From Opitutales bacterium (GTDB taxonomy: Bacteria > Verrucomicrobiota > Verrucomicrobiia > Opitutales > JAVBMG01), in assembly GCA_031552815.1 (NCBI GenBank), contig JAVBMG010000004.1, positions 13,795-77,794 on the forward strand: a DNA stretch of 64,000 nt, written 5' to 3'. The position numbers were made by a program, and so were the translations under genes. How positions within the stretch are numbered: position 1 is the first letter of the stretch; each line of letters starts with the position of its first letter. Under the pieces are notes generated by a model. That model ran no database searches. It worked only from the letters and a program-made list of their open reading frames with translations, and was not told where the DNA came from. Shown in pieces: positions 44,829 to 63,548 of this stretch.

Positions 44829-46379
44829 ATGTCACCCCTTTATTTTATGCGTAGATTATTGACTGTACTTTTATTTATAAGCACATCCTTGTTTGCTCAG
44901 CATGTGGAGCAAACTTACAATAATCCTGTCATTTCAGGCGATTTTCCCGATCCGACCGTGATACGGGTAGGGAATGATTATTATGCTGCCGGCACCACTT
45001 CAGATTTTGCGCCTAATTATCCATTGTATCACTCGACAGATCTTGTTAACTGGAAACGGATTGGGGCAGTCTTCAGCGAAGCACCGTCATGGATAAAGGG
45101 CGATTGCTGGGCGCCGGAGTTATACTATAATAACGGAACCTATTACGTTTATTACACGGCGCGCAAAAAGAGTGATAATATTTCCTGTATCGGCGTTGCC
45201 ACGACAACAGACCCGAGGAAGGGATTCAAGGATCACGGTCAGTTGATAGAGTGGGGCAAGGAAGCCATTGATGCCTATGTGTTTAAGGATGATGACGGAA
45301 AACTGTATATTACCTGGAAAGCATACGGGCTTGAAGAAAGGCCGATAGAAATTCTTGCATCGGAATTATCCCCGGACGGACTATCCCTGAAAGGAGCGCA
45401 TTTTACGCTGACCGATCATACCAAGGGATGGATTGGCAGGGGAGACGAGGGACAGTGCATTGTGAAGCGTAATGGATATTATTATCTATTTTATTCCATC
45501 GGCGGGTGTTGTGATAACCGATGTGATTACCGTGTTCACGTTTCAAGGGCAAAGAACCTCAGAGGCGATTGGGAACAATATGAGCCCGAAGCGATTTTAC
45601 AGGGTGGTGATTTGTGGAAATGTTCCGGACATGGTACTATCGTTCAGTCCCCGGACGGAAGATACTTCTATCTGTATCATGCTTACAATGCCTATGATTT
45701 TGAATTTGTCGGCAGGCAGGGTTTACTGGACGAATTGCTTTGGAATGATGAAACGGGCTGGCCTTATTTCAAATATGGAAATACGCCTACAGCTCAGGCT
45801 CCTGTCCCGTTCAAAGGTACTGTGCAGAATAAAAATAAAGACATAGATGATGATTTCAAGACGGGTAATTATGATGCCTATTGGCAATGGGACATGAATT
45901 TATCCCGACCGGATTTATCAAAGGATAAAGAAGGGTTGAAAATCAAAAATAAAGAGGGACTCTGTTTCTTTGGCGTAAACACTCAATCCGGAAAGTACCG
46001 GATGGAAACCGCTATCACGAACGAAGGAGATAAATTCAGAGGATTAACCGTTTACGGCGGACAGAATGATTTATTGGCCTGGGGGCTTTCCGGAGATGAG
46101 ATAAAACTGTTTCGTGTTGAAAAGGGAAAAAGAACAGAACTGTTTTCCAAGCAAATTGCAGATAAAAAACCACTCAGAATAAGAATCGATGCCCTAAGCG
46201 GTCGATTATATAAATTTTATTGGTTGGGCAAGAACGACGAATGGCAATCTTTTCCGGCTGAAAATAACTATGTGGAAGGCGTATCGCTTCCTCAATGGGG
46301 CAGAGGACTACGCGTCGGGTTTCTTGTAGAAGGAGAGCAACCCGCAGCATTTTCGTTTTTCCGCTTGCTGAACAAATAA
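44829..46379 (+). CDS. GH43 glycoside hydrolase (beta-xylosidase/alpha-L-arabinofuranosidase family) with a C-terminal beta-sandwich
   Basis: The sequence shows NPVISGDFPDPTVIRVGNDYYAAGTT, CWAPELYYNNGTYYVYYTA and a signal peptide. Confidence 0.9.
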   Translation: MSPLYFMRRLLTVLLFISTSLFAQHVEQTYNNPVISGDFPDPTVIRVGNDYYAAGTTSDFAPNYPLYHSTDLVNWKRIGAVFSEAPSWIKGDCWAPELYYNNGTYYVYYTARKKSDNISCIGVATTTDPRKGFKDHGQLIEWGKEAIDAYVFKDDDGKLYITWKAYGLEERPIEILASELSPDGLSLKGAHFTLTDHTKGWIGRGDEGQCIVKRNGYYYLFYSIGGCCDNRCDYRVHVSRAKNLRGDWEQYEPEAILQGGDLWKCSGHGTIVQSPDGRYFYLYHAYNAYDFEFVGRQGLLDELLWNDETGWPYFKYGNTPTAQAPVPFKGTVQNKNKDIDDDFKTGNYDAYWQWDMNLSRPDLSKDKEGLKIKNKEGLCFFGVNTQSGKYRMETAITNEGDKFRGLTVYGGQNDLLAWGLSGDEIKLFRVEKGKRTELFSKQIADKKPLRIRIDALSGRLYKFYWLGKNDEWQSFPAENNYVEGVSLPQWGRGLRVGFLVEGEQPAAFSFFRLLNK

Positions 46380-46493: not shown

Positions 46494-48653
46494 ATGATTC
46501 ACAGGAAAATTGCCTATATTGCCTTATTGCTGTTTACTTTAACATACGTAAAGGCTGAAAAGAAACGCACCGATTATGTTAATCCCTTTTTAGGGACTGC
46601 AACCTTATGGGACAGTAAGGAACTTGGCTATACACCTACAGTAAGGGCTTGGGGTGCGGAGGTCTTTCCGGGATCGTCGCTTCCTAATGCAATGGTTCAG
46701 CTGACGCCGGTTACCCAATTCAGGAGCGGTTCAGGATATCAATACGAAGACAGTGTTATCTATGGCTTTGCTCATACGAGCAAAGGCCATTGGAATCTCT
46801 GCCATATTCCGTTGCTTCCTGCTACAGGCCCGGTGTCTCCCGATGATTTTGCTTCGCCGTTCAATCATGAAAAAGAATCCGCACATCCGGGCTACTATCA
46901 GGTATTTCTTGAGCGCTACGGTGTGAATGCGGAATTAACATCCACTTTGCGATGCGCTTTTCATAAATACACGTTCGATGCCGGGAAAGAGAAAAAATTG
47001 ATCGCCGATCTTACTCGTTCCAATGAAGGCGTGAGGGGGTGGAGCATTTCAAAGAAAGACGATTACACTTTTACCGGTTTTCAGCAGACGGGGGAAAAGA
47101 TGCATTTCTATGCGGTGGCAAACCATAAGATTAAAGACATTGAGTCTGTCAAAAGCAATAAGCGGGAGGTCTCGGTAGTTCGTTTTGAAGATGACTCGAA
47201 ACCGTTGGAAATACAGATCGGTTTTTCATTTGTAAGTATTGATAATGCAAAGGAAAACCTGGAAAAAGAAATGCTTGGAAAGAGTTTTTCTCAAGTACGG
47301 AACGAAGCTACCGTGACATGGGACAATCTGTTGTCGAAAATAAAAGTGAGCGGCGGTACGGAAAAGCAAAAGGAAACGTTTTATTCCTGCCTGTATCGAT
47401 CATTCCTGTGGCCCGCGTTGCGGAGTGACGTGAACGGCGATTTTATCGGAGAACGGGGAAAACTGGAAAATAAAGGCTTCCGTTTCTACACGGATCCTTC
47501 CTTCTGGGATGATTACAGAAACAAACTGGTTTTGCTCGGAATGCTTTCTCCCGATGTTACCGTGGATGTTATCAATTCCATTACCTATAAGGGGGAAATA
47601 CGGGGATTTATGCCAACATTCTTTCATGGCGATCATGCTTCCGTTTTTGTCACGGGATCATACCTTCGCGGATTAAGAGGATTTGATGTTAATAAAGCCT
47701 ACGAACTCATTCTTAAGAATGCGACCGACGAGAGTGGAAGCGAGGATATACAGAGAGAAAGAACGACAGGCAGAGGCTATCTTAAAGAATATAAGGAAAA
47801 AGGCTATATTTCAGAATTTGACATAAAGAATCCCGTTACGAATACACAGGCCAAAGCCTCTGTCACGAAAACACTTGAATATGCGTACGATGATTATGCG
47901 GTAGCATTACTGGCGAAAGAACTGAATGACGAGGCAAACTACAACATGCTGATGAAACGCTCGGGTAATTATAAAAATCTCTTCGATCCGTCGACAGGGC
48001 TCATGCGAGGACGCTTGGAAAACGGTGACTGGGTGGAGGATTTCAACCCTGAGTACCCTTACTATAAATTCATGTACAGGGAGGCCAATGCATGGCAATC
48101 ATCCTTTTTTGCCCCGCATGATGTCAAAGGATTGATCGGGCTATATAAAGACAAGGAGGCATTTGAAAAGAAACTGGATGATCTTTTTACCATTCCATGG
48201 GGCGGTTACGAAGCCCATAACCTGACTGCCTTTATCGGACAGTATTGTCACGGAAATCAACCCGATCACAATTTTCCTTATCTGTATTATTTTGTAGGCA
48301 AGCAGGAGAAATCACAGGCAATCATTGATCAGTGCCTTGGGTTCTACCGCATGGGAAAAGAAAGTTTGTCTTATCCGGGGATGGATGATACGGGAGAAAT
48401 GTCGGCATGGTATGTTTTCAATGCGATAGGACTTTATACCTTTTCGCCGGCAGATCCTGAATATATTGTTTCCGTTCCTATTTTTGATAAAGTGGAATTG
48501 TGTATGAAAGATAATGTCTGTTTTACCATCCAGAAGAAGGGTTCAGGTAAAAAGATTACCGATATTACTTACGGAGATCAAAAAGTGGACGGATACTTCA
48601 TTTCCCACGATGCTTTAAAAGAAGGTAAAATATTAATCATCACGACGAAGTGA
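46494..48653 (+). CDS. GH92 alpha-mannosidase family protein
   Basis: The sequence has VNPFLGT near the N-terminus, GNQPDHNFPYLYYFVGK and GMDDTGEMSAWYVF. The product is 719 aa. Confidence 0.9.
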   Translation: MIHRKIAYIALLLFTLTYVKAEKKRTDYVNPFLGTATLWDSKELGYTPTVRAWGAEVFPGSSLPNAMVQLTPVTQFRSGSGYQYEDSVIYGFAHTSKGHWNLCHIPLLPATGPVSPDDFASPFNHEKESAHPGYYQVFLERYGVNAELTSTLRCAFHKYTFDAGKEKKLIADLTRSNEGVRGWSISKKDDYTFTGFQQTGEKMHFYAVANHKIKDIESVKSNKREVSVVRFEDDSKPLEIQIGFSFVSIDNAKENLEKEMLGKSFSQVRNEATVTWDNLLSKIKVSGGTEKQKETFYSCLYRSFLWPALRSDVNGDFIGERGKLENKGFRFYTDPSFWDDYRNKLVLLGMLSPDVTVDVINSITYKGEIRGFMPTFFHGDHASVFVTGSYLRGLRGFDVNKAYELILKNATDESGSEDIQRERTTGRGYLKEYKEKGYISEFDIKNPVTNTQAKASVTKTLEYAYDDYAVALLAKELNDEANYNMLMKRSGNYKNLFDPSTGLMRGRLENGDWVEDFNPEYPYYKFMYREANAWQSSFFAPHDVKGLIGLYKDKEAFEKKLDDLFTIPWGGYEAHNLTAFIGQYCHGNQPDHNFPYLYYFVGKQEKSQAIIDQCLGFYRMGKESLSYPGMDDTGEMSAWYVFNAIGLYTFSPADPEYIVSVPIFDKVELCMKDNVCFTIQKKGSGKKITDITYGDQKVDGYFISHDALKEGKILIITTK

Positions 48654-50356: not shown

Positions 50357-51433
50357 TTACTTGGTATTTATCTTATATATGCAGGTATGCTTATATTCCT
50401 CTGTCGGAGATAATAGGGTCGATGGAAAACTCACATGATTAGGACTATCCGGGAAATGTTGCGTTTCCAGAGCCAAGGATGCCCTACGATTATAGGTTTT
50501 TTCATCTTTTCCGATAATGGAACCGTCAAAAAAATTACCTCCGTAGAACTGAATTCCGGGTTCAGTTGTCCAGACTTCCAGGTAACGGCCTGATACAGGC
50601 TCATAAACTGATGCTGCAAATTCTAGGGCATCCTTTGTTTTTCTCTTCAGTATCCAGTTATGATCATACCCATGTCCATGTTTCAACTGAACGTAGTCAT
50701 TATCCACCCGCTCTCCGATAAGGGTTGGTTTTTGGAAATCCATGGGTGTATTTGTTACGGATAATAGTTCTCCTGTCGGTATCAAGACTTCATTTACAGG
50801 AGTAAATTTATCCGCATTTATCATGAGCTGGTGGTCATTGATTGTACCGTTTCCCGCTCCATGAAGATTGAAAAAAGAGTGATGGGTTAGATTCACAATC
50901 GTTTTTTTATCGGTCGTTGCATAGTGAGTCACGATAAATTCATTTTCATCATTGAGCTCATAAACCATTCTGACATTTAAGTTCCCCGGATAGCCTTCTT
51001 CTCCGTCCTTTGAAACATAAGTAAATTCCAATGTCTGGGCATTCACCTGTTTTGCGTCCCAAACAACCATGTCAAATCCCTTGTTTCCTCCATGCAGGCT
51101 ATTCGGCGTATTGTTTATCGGTAACTGGCAGGTAATCCCATCCAGCTTGAACTTACCATTTGCGATGCGGTTTCCGTAGCGTCCGATTGTCGCGCCGAGG
51201 AAACGTTCGCCTTTGAAGTGAACATACTTGTCTATATGATTATGTCCCAGGACGATATCGGTAAACTGTCCGTTTTTATCCGGCGCCCAGAATTCAACAA
51301 CCCTGGCTCCGAAATTAGTCACAGTGATCTCGATTCCATTTTTGTTTCTGAGCGAGTACAGATCCGTTAGTTTTCCGTCAACGGTTGATTGGAAATCAGA
51401 CCGTTTCATTTTCGAATACTGAAGATTTTCCAT
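50357..51433 (-). CDS. galM: Aldose 1-epimerase (galactose mutarotase family)
   Basis: The sequence has LHGGNKGFDMVVWDA, NLTHHSFFNL and LALETQHFPDSPN. Confidence 0.9.
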   Translation of the reverse strand: MENLQYSKMKRSDFQSTVDGKLTDLYSLRNKNGIEITVTNFGARVVEFWAPDKNGQFTDIVLGHNHIDKYVHFKGERFLGATIGRYGNRIANGKFKLDGITCQLPINNTPNSLHGGNKGFDMVVWDAKQVNAQTLEFTYVSKDGEEGYPGNLNVRMVYELNDENEFIVTHYATTDKKTIVNLTHHSFFNLHGAGNGTINDHQLMINADKFTPVNEVLIPTGELLSVTNTPMDFQKPTLIGERVDNDYVQLKHGHGYDHNWILKRKTKDALEFAASVYEPVSGRYLEVWTTEPGIQFYGGNFFDGSIIGKDEKTYNRRASLALETQHFPDSPNHVSFPSTLLSPTEEYKHTCIYKINTK

Positions 51434-51450
51434 AATATTCGGTGAATAAA

Positions 51451-52788
51451 TTATTTCCCGACCAACTCTTTCTGGAGTTGTTCGAGTGATTTATTCTTTG
51501 TCTCCGGTATAAGAAGAGCGAAGACAAAACTGCCAGCCGTCATGACAGCAAAGAATCCAAAGATATAGGTCGCCCAGTTCCCGTTCCTTACGAAAATAGG
51601 AAACATCCATGTCAAGGCGGCACACCAAACCCAGTGGGTCATGCTACCGAGCACTTGTCCCTTGGCACGAACACTGTTCGGGAAAATTTCCGCAATTAAT
51701 ACCCAGATAACAGCTCCGAGCGAGATGGCAAAGAAGGCAATAAACCCCATCAAACACATAAGCATGTAGTATCCTGAAATGGAATCCAGGTAATAGAATC
51801 CTCTGGCAACCAAGGCGAGTGATACCGTCATTCCAAATGCCCCAATATAGAGTAACGTTTTCCGTCCAATCTTATCAATCAAAGACATGCCGATCATGGT
51901 AAAAGTCAGATTTGTTAATCCAATGATGATCGACTGCATCATTGCCGATTCCTTGAATATTCCGGACATTTCGAATATCCGGGGAGCATAATAGAGAATT
52001 GCATTAATACCTGACAATTGATTGAAGGTCGACATCAGAAAAGCAATGAGAATGGGTTTACGGTATTCCCACTGAAACAGTTTGCTACCTTCTTTTCCAA
52101 TAGCGGCAACAGATAACGATTCTTTTATGTCCCTTACTTCATCGGCGACTTCTTCATCGCCTACTTTTGCAATTACCTCTCTTGCTTCGTTTTCTCTGCC
52201 TTTGCTGACTAACCAGCGCGGACTTTCAGGAACTGTAAATAACAAGACACAGAAGAGAAGGGCAGGGATACCTTCAACGCCTAGCATCCATTGCCAGTCA
52301 TGAGCAATACCGCTAATAAAATAGTTGGAAATAAATGCGAGCACAATACCAAGCACGATATTAAATTGAAAGAATGCGACAAATCTGCCTCTCCAATGAG
52401 AGGGTGAAATTTCGGCAATATACATAGGTCCGATAACGGAAGAAGCTCCAACGGCAAGTCCTCCGATAAAACGGAAGATCATGAATGAATGCCAATTGAT
52501 AATGGCCGCGCTTCCGATCGCAGACACAAAATATAAAAGTGCAATGAATATCAGCGATCTGAGTCTTCCGTATTTCTCTACAGGTCCACTGCAAATGAGG
52601 GCACCGATAATCGTGCCGATGAGAGCCGTTGCCATGGTAAATCCATGCCAGAAATTATCTAGATGATAGATACTCTGGATGGACTGTTCAGCCCCGGAGA
52701 TAACGGCGGTGTCGAACCCGAAGAGCAAACCGCCCAAGGAAGCGACAAACGCAATATAAAACATGAAACCTTTAATAGATTCTTTCAT
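51451..52788 (-). CDS. MFS sugar-porter-family transporter (XylE/GalP/AraE-like)
   Basis: I set the start at ATG 52788; the longer ORF would overlap the upstream gene. The sequence has GGLLFGFDTAVISGA, EKYGRLRS, PESPRWL and PETKNKSLEQL. Confidence 0.9.
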   Translation of the reverse strand: MKESIKGFMFYIAFVASLGGLLFGFDTAVISGAEQSIQSIYHLDNFWHGFTMATALIGTIIGALICSGPVEKYGRLRSLIFIALLYFVSAIGSAAIINWHSFMIFRFIGGLAVGASSVIGPMYIAEISPSHWRGRFVAFFQFNIVLGIVLAFISNYFISGIAHDWQWMLGVEGIPALLFCVLLFTVPESPRWLVSKGRENEAREVIAKVGDEEVADEVRDIKESLSVAAIGKEGSKLFQWEYRKPILIAFLMSTFNQLSGINAILYYAPRIFEMSGIFKESAMMQSIIIGLTNLTFTMIGMSLIDKIGRKTLLYIGAFGMTVSLALVARGFYYLDSISGYYMLMCLMGFIAFFAISLGAVIWVLIAEIFPNSVRAKGQVLGSMTHWVWCAALTWMFPIFVRNGNWATYIFGFFAVMTAGSFVFALLIPETKNKSLEQLQKELVGK

Positions 52789-52819
52789 TTTGATAGGAGT
52801 ATTTAGTTTGCAGTATTGG

Positions 52820-54889
52820 TTAAATTCCAAATTCGATGCGGTTAATGACATGGTCCTGGTAACATTCGTCCAGCTCAACAAAATAACCGCTCCATCCCCA
52901 TACGCGAACAATCAGATGACGGTATTGCTCGGGGTGTTTCTTTGCATCAAGTAATTTTTCTCTGCTTACGGTATTCAATTGCAATTGGTGTCCTCCAAGC
53001 ATAATGAATGTTTTCACTAACATACCGAGTTTGTTTACACTTTCTTCATTGCGGAAAACGGACTGATCAAATTCCAGTGTCAGCGGACCGCCATTGATCA
53101 CATTAACCAGATTAGGTTTGGAGAATGATTTTATCACCGATATCGGACCTTTCTGATCCATGAACAAACTGGGTGAATAATTGGCCGGTATCATTTCCCC
53201 GGCTGTACGTCCATCCGGAGTGGCACCAAGGTCATTCGCGTGAAATATGTAGTACATCGCTGTACCGGTTCCGGCACGGTAGATTCCACCACGTTCGTTG
53301 ACTTTCCCATTTAATGCATGGTCGAATGAATCCAGGAGCCTTGTACATAGCGAATCGACATAGTCGTCGTCCTGTCCCATTTTGGGTGCTTCCTTGCGGA
53401 GCAATTTTTGCAGTTCCGGTTCATTCCTGAAGTTGTTGGAAATCGCATCCATCAAGGTGCTGTAGCTGACGCGTTTTTCCTCGAAATAGTATTTTTTGAT
53501 TGCTGCCAGCGAATCTGCGGCAGTGGCAATTCCTGTTCCATGGATACCGTAGTTATTGTATTTGGAGCCAAGCGAGATATCCTTCGCATTTTTCACGGTA
53601 CCATCCATGAGCAAGGACATCATCGGTGCCGGAATGATATATGTACTTTTATGTTTTTCGCAGATAGCATCCACCCGTTTCTGAATTTCCTGTTCCACGG
53701 TCTTATAGAATGATTCATAATCAGGACATTCATTAAGCTTTGGGAAGCATTCCTTCACGCAACTGATAAGCGATACTGCATCAATGTTGGGAATATCCAG
53801 GGCGTATTTTGGTATGATAAACTCCCAACAGGCGGCTACCACGTAATTGTAGGCATCTTCCTTTGCATAGCCTTTTCGCATCAGTCCGGGGATAATGATA
53901 TCATCATTGCTGTATTGCGGAAATCCAAGGCCCTTCTTTGTGAGTTGCGAACCCAGTTGAAATATTTCATCCGGCGTATCTTTATCAACACGGATGTTTA
54001 TTTTAGGATCAATCAATTTCAGTTCGTAACTGGCTTTTAAGCACATTTTCGAGAGTTCATTGAACATATACTCTCCGTTGGTATTGCGTCCTCCGAGCAC
54101 CATGCTTTGACCATTGTCTCCTTGTTGCATGCCTGGATACAGATCGCTATCCTTATTGCACATCAGGAAGAATTCCTCAATGAGGTCAAATGCTTCATTC
54201 TCAGTCAGGGTCCCATTCATGATGTCATTCTTATAGAAAGGATAAATATACTGGTCAAAGCGTCCCAATGTATTATGATAATTGTCTGCTTCCCAAATAG
54301 AAAAATGAAGAACACGCAATAATTGCAATGCTTCTCTCAGCGTCTTGGCTCCGTCTGTTTTAATTGCCTTCAGTACGTTTGCTGTGTCTTCTTCTCCCAT
54401 GAGACGGGCATAGTTCTCATATTTCCCGATGGTTTTCTGAACGGAAATAACACAGGTAAGGGCAGCATTCAGAAAAATGGTACCTTCCTGATCCAGACTG
54501 GTATCTTTCAGCCTTTCTTCGATTTCCTTTTTACGGGCTTCCAGTCCCACTTTTATCGTAGTTTCATAATCAGCCGAAATGTTGCATACTGTGCCGCGCT
54601 CGTGAATATAATGCGTTTCTTTTATTTTATCCCATTCGTCTTTTGTGTAAATGCTGGGAATCGTGCTGACGGTTCTGGTAAAAACAATTTTTTCACCCGG
54701 AAGAATAATCGGCATTTCCGCATCAAGAAGGGTCGAAAAACAAACAGCAGATCGCATTATCGGATGCATGTTTTCCTTGAAAAAAGATTCATTGAGAGTG
54801 TCAATGCCTAGTCCTTCCGAACTCCTACGGAACTGGTGGTGTTTTTTGTCTAGGATATATTCTTTTAGGCTTTTTATTCTCTGGTTCAT
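52820..54889 (-). CDS. Glycyl-radical enzyme, PFL2 (glycerol-dehydratase/CutC-like) branch, unusually short (689 aa), substrate unknown
   Basis: The C-terminal radical motif is IVRVWGWSGYFVELD (G665, codon 52895-52897). The Cys loop is VVAACWEFIIP (C354, codon 53828-53830; E356). PFL2-like segments LRVLHFSIW and GRFDQYIYPFY are present. Confidence 0.9.
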   Translation of the reverse strand: MNQRIKSLKEYILDKKHHQFRRSSEGLGIDTLNESFFKENMHPIMRSAVCFSTLLDAEMPIILPGEKIVFTRTVSTIPSIYTKDEWDKIKETHYIHERGTVCNISADYETTIKVGLEARKKEIEERLKDTSLDQEGTIFLNAALTCVISVQKTIGKYENYARLMGEEDTANVLKAIKTDGAKTLREALQLLRVLHFSIWEADNYHNTLGRFDQYIYPFYKNDIMNGTLTENEAFDLIEEFFLMCNKDSDLYPGMQQGDNGQSMVLGGRNTNGEYMFNELSKMCLKASYELKLIDPKINIRVDKDTPDEIFQLGSQLTKKGLGFPQYSNDDIIIPGLMRKGYAKEDAYNYVVAACWEFIIPKYALDIPNIDAVSLISCVKECFPKLNECPDYESFYKTVEQEIQKRVDAICEKHKSTYIIPAPMMSLLMDGTVKNAKDISLGSKYNNYGIHGTGIATAADSLAAIKKYYFEEKRVSYSTLMDAISNNFRNEPELQKLLRKEAPKMGQDDDYVDSLCTRLLDSFDHALNGKVNERGGIYRAGTGTAMYYIFHANDLGATPDGRTAGEMIPANYSPSLFMDQKGPISVIKSFSKPNLVNVINGGPLTLEFDQSVFRNEESVNKLGMLVKTFIMLGGHQLQLNTVSREKLLDAKKHPEQYRHLIVRVWGWSGYFVELDECYQDHVINRIEFGI

Positions 54890-55644
54890 AAGACTATGGT
54901 TTTTATATTATTTTCTTGAAATACGTTGTATACACAAGGTTCTTTTTCCGTATCGAAAAGCGGTTTATATTCCTGACCGATCATGGCATATTTTGCCCCG
55001 GCTGTTTTATGATAACGTAGTATTTCAATGCGAAGCAACGACGGGGCGTCTTTTATTAATGATAGGAGATTAAGCATGTTTTCCTTTGAGTCATTGACCC
55101 CGGGGATCAATGGTATCCGGATGATAAAATCAATATTGGATGAACAGAGGTACTCCAGGTTTTTCAGAATCAACCGATTGTCCACTCCCGTATATTTTTT
55201 GTGTATTGCCGGATCGGTATGCTTCATATCCAGCATAACCAGATCAAGCATCGGTATTATCTTTTGAAATATATCCGGAGTGGCATATCCACTGGTTTCT
55301 ATTGCGGAATGTATATCCGGCTTTATCTTGCCTAGAAACTCGGCAACGAATTCCGATTGGAAAAGCGGTTCGCCGCCGGTAAGGGTTATACCTCCCTGGT
55401 TTAACTTATATATATCCTTATTCCTTAATACCTGGTGGGCGAGTTCGGTGGATGAAATCTCGTAGCCACAGATTACACGTTCATTTTTCTTTATCATAAA
55501 CTGAGGAACAGGGGAGATTCCTTCGGGATTATGACACCAGGAGCAACGTAGCGGGCATCCTTTCAGAAATATAGTTGTTCTGATTCCGGGTCCGTCATGT
55601 ATAGCAAATTCCTCTATGCTAAAAACAATGCCTTTCTTTTCCAT
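54886..55644 (-). CDS. Glycyl-radical-enzyme activating enzyme (radical SAM, PflA-like short form)
   Basis: The sequence has HDGPGIRTTIFLKGCPLRCSWCHNPE (CxxxCxxC) and GGITLTGGEPL. It has no CX2CX2CX3C ferredoxin-type insert. The stop forms an ATGA overlap with the GRE start (54886-54889). I preferred ATG 55644 over 55674. Confidence 0.9.
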   Translation of the reverse strand: MEKKGIVFSIEEFAIHDGPGIRTTIFLKGCPLRCSWCHNPEGISPVPQFMIKKNERVICGYEISSTELAHQVLRNKDIYKLNQGGITLTGGEPLFQSEFVAEFLGKIKPDIHSAIETSGYATPDIFQKIIPMLDLVMLDMKHTDPAIHKKYTGVDNRLILKNLEYLCSSNIDFIIRIPLIPGVNDSKENMLNLLSLIKDAPSLLRIEILRYHKTAGAKYAMIGQEYKPLFDTEKEPCVYNVFQENNIKTIVL

Positions 55645-55920
55645 GAAGTATTTTTGGGCAGGTACGTAACACAAATTAATTTATAAGGCTATCTTTGCAA
55701 GTTGTTTTTCGGATTCGTTCAAACGGGAGATGAAGAAACTTGCGAAGGTAGAAATAGTCATGCCAGTGGCATAAAACAGGCGTAAATACATCGAAGCAAA
55801 TTGTGTCTAGGGGAACGCTATAACACGTCAGGAATTTTAAATACAAGCTTCTGCACAATTTAGGTTTATCAACAATGAAGAATGCGTAAGGGTTTTACAG
55901 CATAAGTAAAACTATAGAGA

Positions 55921-57294
55921 TTATTTTACTCTTTGATTCGTAAATGCTACATCCATTTCTGCGCCTTTATCACCTTGTTGAAGCATCCATTTTTTCAGCT
56001 CGGATTCCATTGTCACGATTCTTTCTGCATATTGCGGATCTGCCGCAAGATTGTTTAATTCCCATGGGTCTTCCTCCAGATCATAAAATTCAATTGCCGG
56101 TCTTGTCTCAAAACGATCCACCAGATTTTTGGCTTGCGGATCAACATCGGCACTTTCCAACCAACTTGCCCAAACCTGTGTCCTATCCTTGATGTTCATC
56201 ATGTGTTTTTCGAAATATTTGGCATCAGGGGTAAGATTGAGAATGAGTTTATAGCGTTTATCCTGTATACTCCGTATCGGATAGGAGGGACCTTCGGGAA
56301 TATTATTGTGTATGCCGTATGCCCAGTTGCGATGGTCTTTCTCTTTTCCGTACAAAACCTGCAGAAAACTTTTTCCGTCTATGTCTTGAATGGCTTTTCC
56401 TCCGGCAAATTCAACCAGGGTCGGTAGAATGTCTTCATATTGGACAAGGGCATCGGATCGGGAACCTGCCGTTATCGCTTTGGGATAGCGAGCAAGTAAT
56501 GCGCTGCTTTGTCCGTACTTCCAGCAGGTCCATTTGCCTCCCGGAAATTGAGGACCTTGTTCACCCAGGAAAATCACAAGGGTATGGTCCAGTTTTCCGG
56601 TTTCTTCCAAGACTTTTAACACAGCGCCAACTTCGTCATCCAAGGCTCCGATTTCGGCGATGAAGTTTCGGAACAATGTCCGGGTTTCTTTGTTATCCAC
56701 AAAAGCAGGGGGCAAGACCATTTTTTCCGGATCAAATCTGCTCTGATCGCCCATGGTCCAAGGCACATGCGGATTGGTGCTGCAAACAAAAAGACAATAG
56801 GGCTGATTACTTTCTGTAATGAACTTCCTGATCCCATCCGTTGTGTAATAGGCCGTAGGAGAAATACAGTTTTCTTCAAAACCGGGAATGTCTTCGAATC
56901 GATAAACCGAACGCGGTTCTGTGTGTTGTTTGCCCGTCCGTCCCACCCTGTAACCGATTTCGGGCAAATAGGAAGTGATGCTTTTTATATTGGGATATGA
57001 GTTTTTGTGATTCTGGTACGCACCGTGCCTGACCGGATACAGCCCTGTATACATGGAGGCCCGAATCGGTACGCACATGGTACAGGATGCATAATTTCCG
57101 GTAAAAAGAACACCTTCTCGGGCAATTCTGTCAATATTGGGAGTCTTTATATTTTTCCCTCCGTAACAACTCAGTTCATTGGAAGCTAAATCGTCTGCTA
57201 TGATGACAACAATATTAGGTTTTTCTGCTGCTATGACCGGCAATGGGATCAGGGGTAGTATCCAATAGGCAATCTTTATAAAATGTGTCCTCAT
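55921..57294 (-). CDS. Cys-type sulfatase (formylglycine-dependent)
   Basis: The protein has a signal peptide. The sequence shows PNIVVIIADDL and the formylglycine motif CVPIRASMYTG (CxPxR). The product is 457 aa. Confidence 0.9.
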   Translation of the reverse strand: MRTHFIKIAYWILPLIPLPVIAAEKPNIVVIIADDLASNELSCYGGKNIKTPNIDRIAREGVLFTGNYASCTMCVPIRASMYTGLYPVRHGAYQNHKNSYPNIKSITSYLPEIGYRVGRTGKQHTEPRSVYRFEDIPGFEENCISPTAYYTTDGIRKFITESNQPYCLFVCSTNPHVPWTMGDQSRFDPEKMVLPPAFVDNKETRTLFRNFIAEIGALDDEVGAVLKVLEETGKLDHTLVIFLGEQGPQFPGGKWTCWKYGQSSALLARYPKAITAGSRSDALVQYEDILPTLVEFAGGKAIQDIDGKSFLQVLYGKEKDHRNWAYGIHNNIPEGPSYPIRSIQDKRYKLILNLTPDAKYFEKHMMNIKDRTQVWASWLESADVDPQAKNLVDRFETRPAIEFYDLEEDPWELNNLAADPQYAERIVTMESELKKWMLQQGDKGAEMDVAFTNQRVK

Positions 57295-57593
57295 ATTAAT
57301 TTCAATAACAGGAGGTAGGTTTATTTCGAATATAAAATGGGTGTGAGATAAATATGTGAAGATAAATTAATCAGATTGTCGCGAAAGCAATGTTCGTTTT
57401 GAAGGCAAGTTCCTGCTTATTAGTAGAAATTAATCGAAACAAGTCGGAAGTATGGGTGTTGTTCATCTTTAATCGAGATGACTTCTCTGCTCGGATACAC
57501 ATCGGTTGGCCAATAGCGTCACTCGCTTATCGAATCAAAAACAATAAATGAATGTGTTACGGGGAGGAGAACAGACTCAAACACAATACGAAT

Positions 57594-60398
57594 ATGAGAG
57601 CGTTAGTACTATTAATTATCACTGCAATCTTTGTCGGATGTTCAACCCCTCAGAATAATATGGATTTGAGTGGTAGTTGGAAATTCAGATTAGACCCTGA
57701 GGATATAGGGGTAAATGAACAATGGTATAATGCTGCATTCCATGAGCAAATTAGGTTGCCGGGTTCATTGCAGGAACAAGGGTATGGGTACGATATTGAT
57801 ACCAACACCCAATGGACCGGAGGTATTGTTGATAAAGCATGGTACACTGCTCCCGAATATGAAAAATACAGACAGAAAGGAAACATCAAAGTTCCATTTT
57901 GGTTGAACCCGGATAAACATTATGTAGGGGTGGCATGGTATCAGAAAGAAGTCGATATTCCACAGGGTTGGAGAGGCAAAACCATTCAACTCGAGCTGGA
58001 GCGTACGCATTGGGAAACAGTACTTTATATCGATGGAATTGAATTGAATAAACAAGACAGTTTATCGACTCCTCATCGGTATCTTTTAGCCGGTATTGAA
58101 CCTGGAAAACATATAATAACTATACGGGTAGATAACCGGATTCATACCGATGTCGGTATGAATGCTCACAGCGTTTCCGATCATACACAAAGCAATTGGA
58201 ACGGGCTGACCGGTAACCTGCTACTCTCAGCCAAACCAAGCGTATACATTGATGATGTACAAATATATCCTGATGTTACGAACAAGAAGGTAAGGGTAGC
58301 AATTGACCTGAAAGGGCGGACAATCTCAGGAGAAGGCAATCTTCTAATGCAACTGGAAACAGTCAAAGGCGAAGTTGTAGGTAAACCAGTTAATGTCGCA
58401 TTTGAAACTTCCGGTAGCGAAACGCAACTGGATGCTACCATAGATGCGGGAGAGACAATATTATTATGGTCCGAACATTCACCGAATCTCTATCGCTTGA
58501 AAACAGTCGTAATCGCTTCGGGAGAAAAAGATGAAAAATACACACAATTCGGATTTCGTGATTTTAAGAAAAACGGGACACGGTTTCATGTAAACGATCA
58601 ACCGGTTTTTCTACGCGGGACACTTGAATGTTGCATTTTTCCGTTAACAGGTTACCCGGCTACTGACGATGCGTACTGGGAAAAAATATACCGAGCCTGC
58701 AAAGCGTTTGGCTTGAACCATGTACGTTTTCACTCCTGGTGTCCCCCGAAAGCGGCATTCAATGTGGCCGATCGCATGGGGATTTATTTACAGGTGGAAT
58801 GCGCTGGTTGGACAACAGTGGGTAATGGCGGCTATTTGGATGAATGGTTCTACGCCGAAGGCGACAGAATACTGAAAGAGTATGGTAATCATCCTTCTTT
58901 TTGCTTTCTGGCTTACGGCAATGAGCCGAGCGGCAATAATCAGGTAAAATACCTCTCGGCTTTGGTTGATTACTGGAAAAAGAAAGATAACCGCAGACTT
59001 TATACCAGCGCTGCCGGATGGCCGTACATTCCAAATGCCGATTATTGGAATGCACCCGATCCACGCATCCAGGCGTGGGGAGGAGGATTAAAAACAATTA
59101 TCAACGCACAACCTCCCCGCTACGATTTCGATTACAGAGAAATTATTAAAAAAGATATGCCAAGCGTCAGCCATGAAATAGGGCAATGGTGTGTGTACCC
59201 AAACTTTAATGAAATCAAGAAGTATACAGGTGTGTTGAAAGCGAAAAACTTTGAGATATTCCAGGAAACATTGAAGGAGAATAATATGGAAGACCTTGCT
59301 GATGATTTCCTGTATGCATCCGGAAAACTTCAAACACTTTGTTATAAGGCAGATATCGAAGCAGCCCTCCGTACACCCGGTTTTGCAGGATTTCAATTGC
59401 TCGACTTGCACGACTTTCCCGGGCAAGGCACTGCATTAGTAGGCGTGCTGGATGCTTTCTGGGACACCAAAGGATATGTGAATGGTAAAGAATACAGCAT
59501 GTTCTGTAATCAGACAGTTCCGCTTATACGTTTTCCGAAAATGATATGGCTGAACAATGAACAGATGAATGTACCCGTTGAATTCGCTCATTTTGGGGAA
59601 GAACCCATAAAGAATGCTAATATTTTATGGGCAATTACCACAACCGATAACAGAATGATAAAAAAAGGGAACTTCGTAAAAGATCTTCCATTAGACAACT
59701 GTATTTCGGTAGGAAATATTGAAATTTCTTTTGAAGGAATAAAAGAAGCAACTCACTTAGTAGTATCTGTAGAGCTCGAAGATAAATCAGCAAAAAATCA
59801 GTGGGACATTTGGGTCTATCCGGCCCAGAAGCAAACGATTACCAATAAACCGTATGTAACATCCACATTTGACGATTCGGTAATCGACAGGCTTAATAAC
59901 GGAGAAACCGTATTACTTTTGTCTCCCAAAGGAAAAGTTGCCTCCGAAAAAGGAGGGAAGATCGCGGTAGGCTTTTCAAGCATCTTCTGGAATACGGCAT
60001 GGACATACAATCAGCCTCCGCATACGTTAGGTATACTATGTAACCCTGAACATCCGGTTTTTGCTTCATTTCCCACTCAGGGATACAGCAATTACCAATG
60101 GTGGGATATTGTTTCCGATTGTGATGCTTTGATCATAGATGATTTCCCGGCCGACTTTCGTCCCATAGTATCTTTGATAGACGACTGGTTTAAAAATCGC
60201 AGGTTAAGCTTATTGTTTGAAGCCAAAGTAGGAAAAGGGAAACTGCTGGTGTGCAGTTCAGGCCTTGACAGAGATCCGATCCAATATCCGGCAGCAGCGC
60301 AATTTAAGCAAAGCATTCTGGAGTATATGTCGTCGGACAAGTTTGATCCTCAATACGAAATTCAACCGGAATTAATAAAGAGTCTGTTTAAGGATTAA
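57594..60398 (+). CDS. GH2-family glycoside hydrolase lipoprotein (beta-galactosidase/beta-glucuronidase-like fold), specificity unknown
   Basis: The lipobox is FVGCS (start taken at ATG 57594). The sequence has DLSGSWKFRLDP, VGVAWYQKEVDIP, the acid/base-type AYGNEPSG and SHEIGQW. The extra C-terminal ~300 aa is unassigned. Confidence 0.75.
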   Translation: MRALVLLIITAIFVGCSTPQNNMDLSGSWKFRLDPEDIGVNEQWYNAAFHEQIRLPGSLQEQGYGYDIDTNTQWTGGIVDKAWYTAPEYEKYRQKGNIKVPFWLNPDKHYVGVAWYQKEVDIPQGWRGKTIQLELERTHWETVLYIDGIELNKQDSLSTPHRYLLAGIEPGKHIITIRVDNRIHTDVGMNAHSVSDHTQSNWNGLTGNLLLSAKPSVYIDDVQIYPDVTNKKVRVAIDLKGRTISGEGNLLMQLETVKGEVVGKPVNVAFETSGSETQLDATIDAGETILLWSEHSPNLYRLKTVVIASGEKDEKYTQFGFRDFKKNGTRFHVNDQPVFLRGTLECCIFPLTGYPATDDAYWEKIYRACKAFGLNHVRFHSWCPPKAAFNVADRMGIYLQVECAGWTTVGNGGYLDEWFYAEGDRILKEYGNHPSFCFLAYGNEPSGNNQVKYLSALVDYWKKKDNRRLYTSAAGWPYIPNADYWNAPDPRIQAWGGGLKTIINAQPPRYDFDYREIIKKDMPSVSHEIGQWCVYPNFNEIKKYTGVLKAKNFEIFQETLKENNMEDLADDFLYASGKLQTLCYKADIEAALRTPGFAGFQLLDLHDFPGQGTALVGVLDAFWDTKGYVNGKEYSMFCNQTVPLIRFPKMIWLNNEQMNVPVEFAHFGEEPIKNANILWAITTTDNRMIKKGNFVKDLPLDNCISVGNIEISFEGIKEATHLVVSVELEDKSAKNQWDIWVYPAQKQTITNKPYVTSTFDDSVIDRLNNGETVLLLSPKGKVASEKGGKIAVGFSSIFWNTAWTYNQPPHTLGILCNPEHPVFASFPTQGYSNYQWWDIVSDCDALIIDDFPADFRPIVSLIDDWFKNRRLSLLFEAKVGKGKLLVCSSGLDRDPIQYPAAAQFKQSILEYMSSDKFDPQYEIQPELIKSLFKD

Positions 60399-60739: not shown

Positions 60740-62068
60740 TTATAGATGACTGTTGATGATGGATTCAAGTAATTCCTGTTTACCGCTTTTGGCTTCCGGT
60801 TCGGTCTGTTGGAGTGCGATTTGTCTCAGGTCTTCCAAGGTCAATTTTCCTGCCTCAAAAGCTTTTCCCTGTTCCGAGTCGTAAGAGGAATACCGATCTT
60901 TTCGCAGTTTCCGATAATCCGAATTTTCCAGAATATCCGCTGCCACAATCAGTGCCCGGGCAAAAGCGTCCATTCCGCAGATATGAGCAATAAACAAGTC
61001 CTCGGGATCAGTAGAATTACGCCTGACTTTCGCGTCAAAATTAGTGCCACCTGTGGAGAACCCAGGCCCTTCCAGCAACACCAACCATGCATTGACGAGT
61101 TCCTGAACATTGACGGGAAATTGGTCAGTATCCCAGCCGTTTTGGTAATCTCCCCGGTTGGCATCGATGCTTCCCATCATGCCGGCATCAACGGCCACTT
61201 GCAGTTCATGCTCAAAAGTATGCCCAGCCAATGTCGCATGATTAACTTCAATGTTTAATTTGAAGTCCTTATCCAAGCCGTAGTGCCGCAGGAAACCAAT
61301 GACAGTTTCCGCATCATAATCATATTGGTGCTTTGTTGGCTCCATGGGCTTTGGCTCGATCAGGAATGTTCCTTTGAACCCGTTTTTTCGTCCATAATCG
61401 CGAGCTATGCCCAGCATCATGGCCAAATGTTCCTTCTCCCGCTGCATGTTTGTGTTGAGCAGGCTCATGTATCCTTCGCGTCCACCCCAGAACACATAGT
61501 TTTCTCCACCCAAGGCAATGGTAGCATCGATGGCGTTCTTTATTTGCAGGCCTGCGCAGGCTGTCACCGGGAAATGGGGATTGGTCGCTGCGCCGTTCAT
61601 ATAACGGGGATGGGTGAATACATTGGCGGTGCCCCATAACAATCTGATCCCGGATGCTTTTTGCTTTTCCTTGGCGTAATCGACTATCGTGTGCAGGCGT
61701 TTTTCAAATTCTTTCAGAGAGTCACCTTCTTCTACGAGGTCAACGTCGTGGAAGCAATAGAAGGGCATTCCCAATTTGGTCATGAATTCGAACGCGGCAT
61801 CCATTTTGTTTTTTGCCCGTTCAAGAGGAGAGTCGCCCTTGTTCCAATCAAGCCGGCGCGTGGCTTCACCAAAGGGATCATTGCCTCCGGCACACAGGGT
61901 ATGCCAATAGGCCATGGAAAAACGCAGATGCTCCTTTAGGGATTTTCCCATGATGACCCGGTTTTCGTCGTAATACCTGTAGGCGAGTGGATCGCGTGAT
62001 TGCGGTCCTGCATAGGTGATTTTTTTGATACTAGGAAAGTATTCCTTGGTCCCTGTGATGATATTCAT
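60740..62068 (-). CDS. xylA: Xylose isomerase (class II)
   Basis: The sequence has [30 protein letters not shown] and [16 protein letters not shown]. The product is 442 aa. Confidence 0.95.
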
Positions 62069-62072
62069 GGAA

Positions 62073-63548
62073 TTAATGGTTTGAGTTTAGAAAACGAAGC
62101 CAGCGTTCGTAGGCTTCTTCAAAAATAGGTTTTTCTTTCGGCTCCGGCTCTACTGTGGCAATTTTGCTCAATGATGCAAAGGCTTCGGCAGGGGAGGCAT
62201 AGACTCCGGTTCCCAGGCCTGCACCACGAGCTGCCCCGATGGAACCATCGGTGTCGTAAATCTCAATGCAGGTTTCCGCAGCTCCTGCCAGGGATTCGCG
62301 GAATACCGGACTCAGGAACATATTGGCGTTTCCCGCTCGGATAACTTGAATATCCATACCCATATTTCGCATAATATCCATACCGTATTTGAAGGCGAAG
62401 GCGACGCCCTCTTGGGCAGCCCGAAGCAGGTGACGTCGGTCATGGATATTGAAATTGATGTTGTGAAATGCAGCGCTGCTCTCGTTGTTGCCGAGGATGC
62501 GTTCTACTCCATTACCGAAGGGGACGACAACCACGCCTTTCGAGCCAATGGAAATTTCTCCTGCCAGTCTGTCCATGTCTCCATATGAGTCTCCCATAAT
62601 TCTCCGTAACCAGGACATGAGGCTGCCTGTGCCATTGATGCAAAGCAAAACACCCAGTCTGGGCGCCTCCGGCGAGTGATTGACATGCAGGAACGTGTTG
62701 ATTCTCGATTGCGGGTCGAAGGTAGCTTTGTCGTTTATTCCGTAAACAACACCCGAGGTTCCGGCGGTTGAGGCAATTTCTCCGAGCTGCAGCACATTAA
62801 GAGATAGGGCATTGTTAGGTTGATCTCCGGCCCGATAGGCAACCGGTATTCCCGGAGACAGTCCCAGCAGGCTTGCTGCGGATGCCGTGACATAACCTTG
62901 TTGTCCGAAAGTGGGTACCACCGTGGCCAGCATATCACGAGTGAGGTCTAATTCCCTGAGTAATTCATCGGAAATGCACTCTTGTTTGAAATCCCAGAAA
63001 ATTCCCTCGGAGAGGCCTGACTGTGTTGTGCAAATCTCTCCCGTGAGCCGCATCGCGATATAGTCCCCCGGGAGCATGATTTTGTGGATCTGTGCAAAAA
63101 CCTCCGGCTCATTTTTTCTGATCCACGCCAGCTTTGCTGCGGTAAAGTTGCCTGGGGAATTCAAGAGGTGGCTAAGGCAAAACTTCTCCCCCAGGTTTTT
63201 AAAAGCAGCATTCCCAATCGGAGCTGCCCGACTGTCGCACCAGATGATAGCCGGACGAAGCGTATGTCCGTTGCGATCAACGACGACCAGCCCGTGCATT
63301 TGGTAGGAGATTCCGATTCCCTTGATATCCTTTCCGGCAATTCCCGTTGCGTTGAGAATTGCCTGAGTGGCTTGCCGGAGACTTTCCCACCATGTTTGCG
63401 GGTCTTGCTCCGCCCATCCGACCTGTGGGGCGACAATCAGCATTTCGCGTTGAGGCTGCGAACTTGTGGCGACACATTTTCCCGTGTGAGCATCCACCAG
63501 GGAGGCTTTGACAAAAGAACTGCCGATATCGTATCCGAGTAAATACAT
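62073..63548 (-). CDS. xylB: Xylulokinase (FGGY family)
   Basis: The sequence has [28 protein letters not shown] and a C-terminal FGGY domain. It sits immediately upstream of xylA. Confidence 0.9.

Follow-up and report, generated by a model that had tools for sequence, protein, structure and literature searches.

Gut microbes use glycyl radical enzymes (GREs) to make trimethylamine, hydrogen sulfide, and p-cresol and to break down hydroxyproline, processes that are relevant to health. The closest described systems include glycerol dehydratase (GD) of Clostridium butyricum (1R8W and 1R9D), which has a dedicated radical S-adenosylmethionine (SAM) activase. PflD and YbiW (8ID0, 8YJO, and 8ID7) are C-O lyases for 1,5-anhydromannitol-6-phosphate and 1,5-anhydroglucitol-6-phosphate, and the Glu of their CXE motif is held on a sugar hydroxyl. 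HypD (6VXC), the trans-4-hydroxy-L-proline dehydratase, is an abundant gut GRE eliminase with CXE that is also found in Bacteroides. To our knowledge, PflD and YbiW are the only characterised GREs that act on carbohydrates. A compact GRE of 689 amino acids is encoded at positions 52820..54889 on the minus strand of a stretch of 64,000 nucleotides (the window) from an Opitutales bacterium (contig JAVBMG010000004.1). It belongs to a clade with the motifs CWE and RVWGW, and the gene very probably encodes a functional GRE. The best explanation of its role is a radical C-O lyase, either a dehydratase or a ring-opening isomerase, that acts on a free sugar of the arabino/galacto type, and a probability of roughly 0.6 is given to this reading. 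That it acts on a carbohydrate of some kind appears slightly more probable.

In a 2026 review of GREs from the Drennan laboratory (PMC13450708), C-x-E is the hallmark of GRE eliminases and isomerases, and the Glu is hydrogen-bonded to a hydroxyl of the substrate. The helices that precede the GRE barrel form a conserved dimer interface, and this dimer is absent from crystals of the sugar isomerases YbiW and PflD (PMC13450708). The review lists no short GRE of sugar operons and calls whole clades unvalidated. No paper on the family described here was found in full-text searches that covered glycyl radical with Bacteroides, sugar, and glycan topics, and neither a curated family model nor a solved structure for the clade was found in NCBIfam and the PDB. 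The public names of its members are generic, such as "pyruvate formate lyase family protein" and "formate C-acetyltransferase."

Catalytic residues and fold

The catalytic residues of the window GRE can be placed by alignment. Its best sequence match in the PDB is the B12-independent glycerol dehydratase 1R8W (2.3e-78, approximately 26-30% identity), and in this phmmer alignment C354, E356, and G665 correspond to C433, E435, and G763. Alignments to PflD (8ID0) and HypD (6VXC) agree on the equivalents of these three residues, and a PDB search with the family profile gave the same result. C354 is at the position of the thiyl Cys and G665 is at the position of the radical Gly. The Cys loop, VVAACWEFIIP, contains A-A-C354-W-E356-F (53819..53836, minus strand) with the thiyl Cys and the general-base Glu, and it aligns to GC433VE435 of GD, GCVE of PflD, and the HypD loop. 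The glycyl radical motif, R662-V-W-G665-W666 (52892..52906, minus strand), aligns to RVAG763Y of 1R8W. It lies in the stretch ...IVRVWG665WSGYFVELD..., and the reading frame ends in ...HLIVRVWGWSGYFVELD, with G665 inside. The spacing from Cys to Gly is 311 amino acids, compared to 330 in GD.

Two Pfam domains were identified, PFL-like PF02901 (residues 81-543, 312 bits) and Gly_radical PF01228 (residues 571-671, 76.6 bits). With 47 diverse relatives as its basis, an AlphaFold model reached a mean pLDDT of 91.5 and a pTM of 0.92. Both finger hairpins are present in it, with the Cys and the Gly at the hairpin tips. The Cys-loop hairpin is formed by strands 350-352 and 356-358, and DSSP of the model assigns strands 660-663 and 666-669 to the radical hairpin. 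With Foldseek, the model matches approximately 40 GRE structures at query-normalised TM-scores of 0.86-0.89, including GD, PflD, HypD, and CutC. The top TM-score belongs to PflD 8ID0 (0.89/0.80), and the first-ranked match is glycerol dehydratase 1R8W. The ten-stranded alpha/beta barrel is indicated by PF02901, the model, the Foldseek matches, and the alignment of C354 with C433. The protein possesses three defining features of the GRE superfamily, a C-terminal RVxG radical hairpin, a PFL-like barrel with a Cys finger loop, and a cognate radical SAM activase. In C354-W-E356 it also carries the C-x-E of the eliminases and isomerases.

The gene is complete. Its ATG shares 4 bp with the end of the preceding activase gene, which stops in TGA (cttATGAacc), and 7 codons upstream of the ATG there is a TAA in frame. 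Because of this stop codon and the overlap with the activase stop, the GRE cannot extend further at its N-terminus. A mis-called start or a truncation was ruled out by the same two features together with the conserved length of the family. The gene is a complete and conserved design, and neither a chance reading frame nor an assembly artefact.

The original prediction had described, from the letters of the window, a PFL2-type GRE of 689 amino acids with a Gly665 radical motif and a C354-W-E356 loop. The reading frame, Pfam, and the PDB alignments bear this out. As had been claimed, there is a single catalytic Cys with Glu at +2, in a loop AACWE that aligns to GCVE, and not the Cys-Cys pair of pyruvate formate-lyase (PFL). 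The unusual Trp residues that had been pointed out, in C-W-E and on both sides of the radical Gly, are real and family-wide, and the start, which was to be checked in the upstream in-frame region, is sound. The label PFL2-type is loose; the enzyme is a GRE of the PFL fold, but it does not reach the cut-off of TIGR01774. The prediction had not taken up the chief pointers to a function, namely the operon for sugar uptake, Asn103 in place of His164, and a larger pocket.

Compact architecture, pocket, and distribution

No characterised PFL-like GRE in the PDB (776-1150 amino acids) is as short as the window GRE with its 689 amino acids. Where the missing residues lie was explored by profile-profile alignment with hhalign, in which a profile of the family (A2) was compared to a profile of 20 canonical long GREs (A3); the alignment covers residues 1-688. 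Residues 1-76 align to canonical positions 7-81, and the first helices are kept (M..RI..L... compared to RI.RLK...). Most of the loss falls in one internal block, canonical positions ~85-135 (~50-55 residues; consensus FPE..W...E.D...R..D....K..L...PYWK), which is absent at a junction near residues 79/80 (54650..54655, minus strand). A PDB profile search gave a weak match for an N-terminal domain and a main match, with the same split. The original prediction was correct that the protein is short, but the trimmed N-terminus that it proposed was not found. Smaller deletions are located near residue 165 (~11 residues) and residue 385 (~15 residues). Eight residues are lost in the hairpin after the Cys loop, equivalent to residues 443-450 of GD and including Asp447, and this short hairpin without the Asp447 loop is common to the window GRE and the PflD sugar isomerase. 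In total, 98 residues are missing relative to GD, 79 before the Cys and 19 between the Cys and the Gly.

The pocket is unlike those of the characterised GREs and differs from that of GD at several positions. Asn103 (54581..54583, minus strand), which is invariant in the family profile, is found by PDB and profile alignments at the position of GD His164. A His is present at this position in GD, propanediol dehydratase (PD), and both PflD structures, and it is nearly invariant in the profile of long GREs. The conserved His of the GH(V/I)xxDY motif is not present in the family. The loop QQGDNGQS (residues 255-262; 54104..54127, minus strand), which is kept in 237 of 239 relatives, places Gly260 at the position of GD Tyr339. 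Residues 251-260, in the region of this loop, are the one part of the model with low confidence (pLDDT 56). The strand R538-A-G-T-G542-T-A-M-Y-Y (53249..53278, minus strand) places Gly542 at GD Tyr640 and Arg538 at GD Gln636, and the RAGTG motif, including Arg538, is invariant in the family. His281, Arg287, and Asp289 of GD are retained as His205, Arg210, and Asp212, and GD Ser282 is Asn206 in the window GRE. The glycerol-binding residues of GD, which are reportedly His164, Ser282, Tyr339, Asp447, and Tyr640 (O'Brien et al. 2004), are represented by Asn, Asn, Gly, a deletion, and Gly. His164 and Glu435 are confirmed in the 2026 review, in which His164 is the proposed general acid for the leaving hydroxyl (PMC13450708). 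Two Tyr are replaced by Gly, one loop is lost, and new polar residues are present, which points to a predicted pocket bigger than that of GD and to a substrate that would be much larger than glycerol and carry more hydroxyls. The replacement of His by Asn is informative for the mechanism of the enzyme, and the Trp residues on either side of the radical Gly are relevant to the tuning of its environment.

These features are conserved in a large family. A first homologue search returned 120 relatives with at least 65% identity, nearly all of exactly 689 amino acids. The Bacteroides fragilis cluster of the family holds 1914 member sequences. Among cluster representatives at 50% identity, full-length relatives (residues 1-687) have 640-745 amino acids and extend down to ~32-35% identity, while the classical GREs of 770-810 amino acids align only from query residue ~100 onward. 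A search seeded with distant members added sequences of 680-697 amino acids from Firmicutes, Lentisphaerae, Kiritimatiellia, and Prolixibacteraceae. Of the 239 cluster representatives that stand for the family, 233 have 680-697 amino acids, and all 239 contain AACWE and R[VI]WGWS[GA]. The survey of length and C-W-E conservation that had been proposed therefore came out as conserved on both counts. The catalytic and Trp residues are invariant in these representatives down to ~42% identity and also in a set of more distant relatives (A1) down to 33% identity. RVWG is common to the whole superclade of short GREs.

When one genome per species was scanned, a relative was found in at least 537 species genomes. 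The family is represented in Bacteroidota, Bacillota, Verrucomicrobiota/Kiritimatiellia, Lentisphaerae, and Spirochaetes. Cultured carriers include Hungatella hathewayi DSM 13479, Acetatifactor aquisgranensis, Enterocloster hominis, and [Clostridium] symbiosum. The hosts are gut and sediment anaerobes, most of them gut or rumen bacteria of terrestrial animals.

Five full-length sequences with 31-36% identity (P0155, P0156, P0159, P0169, and P0199) lack the catalytic Cys and/or the radical Gly, and judging by these substitutions they may be non-radical paralogues. In one of these, P0169, the Gly position falls in RLWSS, a reminder of the aminoacyl radical enzymes of the 2026 review (PMC13450708).

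No known equivalog could be assigned. The best PDB chain is only ~26-30% identical, and every NCBIfam equivalog is far below its cut-off: TIGR01774 for PFL2/glycerol dehydratase (337.5 bits, cut-off 678), the HypD model NF043068 (301 bits, cut-off 1100), the PflD model NF007437 (280 bits, cut-off 1109), the CutC model (247 bits, cut-off 1050), and the PFL model TIGR01255 (78 bits, cut-off 994). The window GRE is ordinary in its fold and radical machinery and unusual in its architecture and motifs, and it represents an uncharacterised clade.

Gene context and proposed reaction

On the minus strand of the window, the order of genes is sulfatase, activase, GRE, MFS porter, and mutarotase. The GRE-activating radical SAM enzyme (252 amino acids; 54886..55644, minus strand) starts at the ATG at 55644, where the listed reading frame has a TTG at 55674, and it scores 246 bits with TIGR02494 (cut-off 174). 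It has the CX3CX2C cluster motif and no ferredoxin-like insert, and it is also called at 252 amino acids on an identical public contig, L008. The MFS sugar porter (445 amino acids; 51451..52788, minus strand) follows the GRE after a gap of 31 bp. It resembles XylE, its best match, with 360 bits for Sugar_tr and 355 bits for TIGR00879 (cut-off 238). The listed reading frame for the porter, 51451-52911, starts with a TTG at 52911 and overlaps the 3' end of the GRE by 92 bp. Translation almost certainly begins instead at the ATG at 52788, which gives the 445 amino acids called in L008. After a further gap of 17 bp, an aldose 1-epimerase of the galactose mutarotase family is encoded (50357..51433, minus strand; PF01263 294 bits; NF008277 315 bits, cut-off 240). 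The GRE appears to be co-transcribed with the activase, the sugar porter, and the mutarotase. A sigma-70 promoter scan gave nothing above background, which would be expected of a Bacteroidales genome. The sulfatase gene (55921..57294, minus strand; PF00884 116 bits) lies 276 bp upstream of the activase ATG. It is probably a separate transcription unit and a loosely associated neighbor.

The neighbors of the GRE were counted in 81 non-redundant loci from several phyla, of which a subset of 56 has three or more genes to either side. An activase gene adjoins the GRE in 70 of the 81 loci and an MFS porter gene in 26. Components of CUT2 ABC transporters are present in approximately 14 loci and CUT1 permeases in approximately 9. 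The glycosidases GH51 (18 loci), GH127 (9 loci), and GH36 (at least 11 loci) also occur, as do the mutarotase (11 loci) and a xylulokinase-like FGGY kinase (4 loci). Among the 56 flanked loci, 51 have the activase, 39 have a sugar transporter, and 46 have any sugar gene no more than four genes away from the GRE. The order in B. fragilis is hybrid two-component regulator, activase, GRE, MFS, mutarotase, and GH127. Other Bacteroidales have GntR, activase, GRE, MFS, GH51, and GH127, or GH36, activase, GRE, and MFS. In Firmicutes the order can be LacI, activase, GRE, and a CUT2 monosaccharide ABC transporter, or CUT1 ABC, GH51, LacI, activase, and GRE. In different phyla, three types of importer adjoin the GRE, namely MFS, CUT2 ABC, and CUT1 ABC with GH51. 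The best score of the CUT2 ATPase is with the galactofuranose transporter YtfR (704 bits, compared to 527 for AraG), that of the permease is with AraH, and that of the binding protein is with RbsB. Activase, GRE, and an importer that takes up monosaccharides without phosphorylating them make up the conserved unit, to which a mutarotase is often added. Genes for the release of L-arabinofuranose, L-arabinopyranose, or D-galactose are frequent at its flanks.

Two variations were seen. In one locus (L092), a second GRE gene follows the activase. In Firmicutes, activases of the family (L047 and L042; ~281 amino acids) contain a compact insert with two CX2CX2CX3C ferredoxin-like motifs. The 252-amino-acid type of the window and Bacteroidales has only CX3CX2C, and one lineage appears to have lost this auxiliary-cluster domain.

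A sugar substrate is proposed because importers, mutarotase, and GH51, GH127, or GH36 travel with the GRE. The fold, the catalytic residues, the activase, the conservation, and the gene context are observed, and the activity, the type of reaction, and the substrate are inferred. The simplest reading is that the enzyme acts on an imported free sugar and yields a product usable by general metabolism. The sugar would most likely be arabino/galacto-configured and released by GH51, GH127, or GH36 glycosidases. With SAM and a reduced [4Fe-4S] cluster, the activase would install a radical on Gly665, and the radical would move from there to Cys354. The Cys354 thiyl radical would take a hydrogen from a carbinol carbon of the imported monosaccharide, and Glu356 would deprotonate the hydroxyl of the same carbon. 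The resulting ketyl radical could expel the oxygen of the neighboring carbon. Loss of a hydroxyl would be a dehydration, and loss of the ring oxygen would be a ring-opening isomerisation of the YbiW/PflD kind. The alpha-keto radical would then regain the hydrogen from Cys354. L-arabinose, possibly in its furanose form, is the leading candidate, though only tentatively so. A replacement of AraA by the GRE is unsupported, as AraA is adjacent in one locus only and absent from the window. A sulfated or seaweed sugar such as 3,6-anhydrogalactose, prompted by the sulfatase, was set aside, as just 4 of the 81 loci have a sulfatase close to the GRE and most hosts live in the gut or rumen of terrestrial animals.

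Several points weigh against a lyase for free arabino/galacto sugars. The substrate is drawn solely from the gene neighborhood, sugar genes are common in these genomes, and the neighbor counts have no background control. No downstream catabolic enzyme is conserved among the neighbors in the 81 loci, so the product of the GRE cannot be deduced. In Lentisphaerae and Verrucomicrobia (L009-L011 and L070), the GRE lies between the genes of an FtsJ/TlyA-like methyltransferase and a Sua5/YciO/YrdC-like protein. Stop and start codons overlap there, and neither an activase nor sugar genes adjoin the GRE. B. fragilis is classically scored as arabinose-negative, which is a poor fit with L-arabinose. A radical enzyme would be expensive for a plain aldose-ketose isomerisation, and the true reaction may be something else. 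The Glu356 residue is put in the pocket by alignment alone and not by measured geometry. In addition, protonation of the leaving group is left unexplained because the general-acid His of GD is Asn103.

Four other explanations were weighed. The enzyme could be a sugar-phosphate ring-opening isomerase like PflD/YbiW, a 1,5-anhydro-hexitol-6-phosphate C-O lyase that acts after a kinase encoded elsewhere. With the family profile, 8YJO is matched at 3.7e-113, and the top TM-score and the short Cys-loop hairpin point in the same direction. The invariant, family-specific Arg538 could bind an anion, and an FGGY kinase is nearby in 4 loci. However, the score with the PflD model is far too low, and no phosphotransferase system (PTS) or FsaA-type aldolase was found among the conserved or annotated neighbors of the 81 loci, in which not every neighbor is annotated. 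The MFS and ABC importers are non-phosphorylating, and a mutarotase acts on free reducing sugars. PflD also keeps the His and the Tyr equivalent to Tyr640, both of which are replaced in the window family, and a sugar-phosphate substrate is unlikely. A small-diol dehydratase of the glycerol or 1,2-propanediol type that happens to be short is less probable again. GD is the best match by sequence and by Foldseek rank and CXE is present, but the GD pocket residues are not kept, the TIGR01774 score is insufficient, and none of the 81 loci contains genes for aldehyde dehydrogenase, 1,3-propanediol dehydrogenase, or microcompartment shells, with sugar importers and glycosidases found instead.

The deletions and the Trp residues around the Gly could also block activation and leave a degenerate or regulatory remnant of a GRE. 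A few distant relatives have indeed lost the Cys and/or the Gly. The classic glycine-radical signature has a small residue before the Gly and a Tyr after it, and the window GRE has neither. A remnant is very improbable, however, when the catalytic and Trp residues are invariant in 239 representatives, RVWG extends across the superclade, the activase is translationally coupled, and both hairpins are intact in a high-confidence model. A PFL-type C-C lyase, as in the public annotation, has only the database names in its favor. It is effectively refuted by the single Cys in place of the Cys-Cys pair, the CXE signature of eliminases and isomerases, the TIGR01255 score, and matches to PFL structures at only 1e-17.

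A sibling family of short GREs gives a further lead. It has the motifs SACWEP...RVWGFSAYF and 650-720 amino acids, and it is 30-35% identical to the window GRE. The compact build, the CWE loop, RVWG, the invariant Asn of G-N-x-T-x-DY, and the GD(N/T)GQ loop are shared. Of 84 sibling loci (L095-L178, e.g., L097:8001-12878), 73 have an adjacent activase and 48 an adjacent Wzx-type flippase, and in 36 a UDP-galactopyranose mutase is within five genes of the GRE; GT2 glycosyltransferases are common. The order Wzx flippase, GRE, activase, UDP-galactopyranose mutase, and glycosyltransferases was found both in an archaeal contig and in a human-gut bacterial contig. No paper that links a GRE with galactofuranose was found in the literature search. 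The mutase near the sibling, taken with the GH51/GH127 and YtfR-like neighbors of the window family, provides a lead, namely that the whole compact CWE/RVWG superclade may handle furanose sugars. A fuller version is speculative: the two families could form a furanose-directed branch of GREs, in which the window enzyme carries out a radical C-O cleavage new to science (ring opening or deoxygenation) of free arabino- or galacto-furanose released by GH51/GH127, and the sibling modifies a nucleotide-furanose for cell-surface glycans. If true, B. fragilis and many gut Clostridia would have an anaerobic route for sugars that has so far gone unrecognised, and the sibling would be the first biosynthetic GRE apart from ribonucleotide reductase.

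Other genes in the window are also connected to sugars. A GH2 similar to the BT4151 exo-beta-1,4-galactosidase (57552-60398, plus strand) scores 1183 bits, compared to a cut-off of 1500. Genes for GH92 (46494-48653, plus strand) and GH43 (44829-46379, plus strand) flank the operon as well, and the three mark a glycan-degradation neighborhood. A xylose-isomerase-like TIM-barrel gene (442 amino acids) and an FGGY sugar kinase gene (491 amino acids) at 60740-63548 (minus strand), ~3.4 kb from the sulfatase gene, are probably xylA-xylB. A fusion of 629 amino acids (40300-42189, plus strand) joins a GFO/IDH/MocA oxidoreductase to a xylose-isomerase-like (AP_endonuc_2) TIM barrel. Unfused relatives of this protein and 3-keto-disaccharide-hydrolase-like genes are near the GRE in Fermentimonas (L005).

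Comparison with known systems

Should the window GRE prove to use a free sugar, no other GRE would be known to do the same, and the recently found chemistry of "anhydroglycolysis" would be extended to unphosphorylated plant and microbial sugars. The clade is abundant, is defined by its motifs, and occurs in compact operons with sugar importers, which provides a short list of candidate substrates. A GRE of 689 amino acids with a 252-amino-acid activase that has no auxiliary clusters could be a more tractable pair for biochemistry.

The sibling family is found in glycan-biosynthesis clusters, whereas the window family is found in catabolic sugar-uptake operons. HypD is matched at 2.5e-69, but its pocket and its gene context, with P5C reductase, differ from those of the window GRE. 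GD has the same fold and the aligned catalytic residues, and like the window GRE it is served by its own activase. However, it has RVAGY, GCVE, and a context of glycerol fermentation, whereas the window GRE has RVWGW, ACWE, and a context of sugar uptake. PflD and YbiW are encoded with PTS and aldolase genes. Their solved chains have 776-826 amino acids, keep the GH motif and the Tyr equivalent to Tyr640, and act on phosphorylated substrates, unlike the window GRE. The ring-opening C-O cleavage carried out by PflD and YbiW is nonetheless a plausible model for the chemistry of the window GRE.

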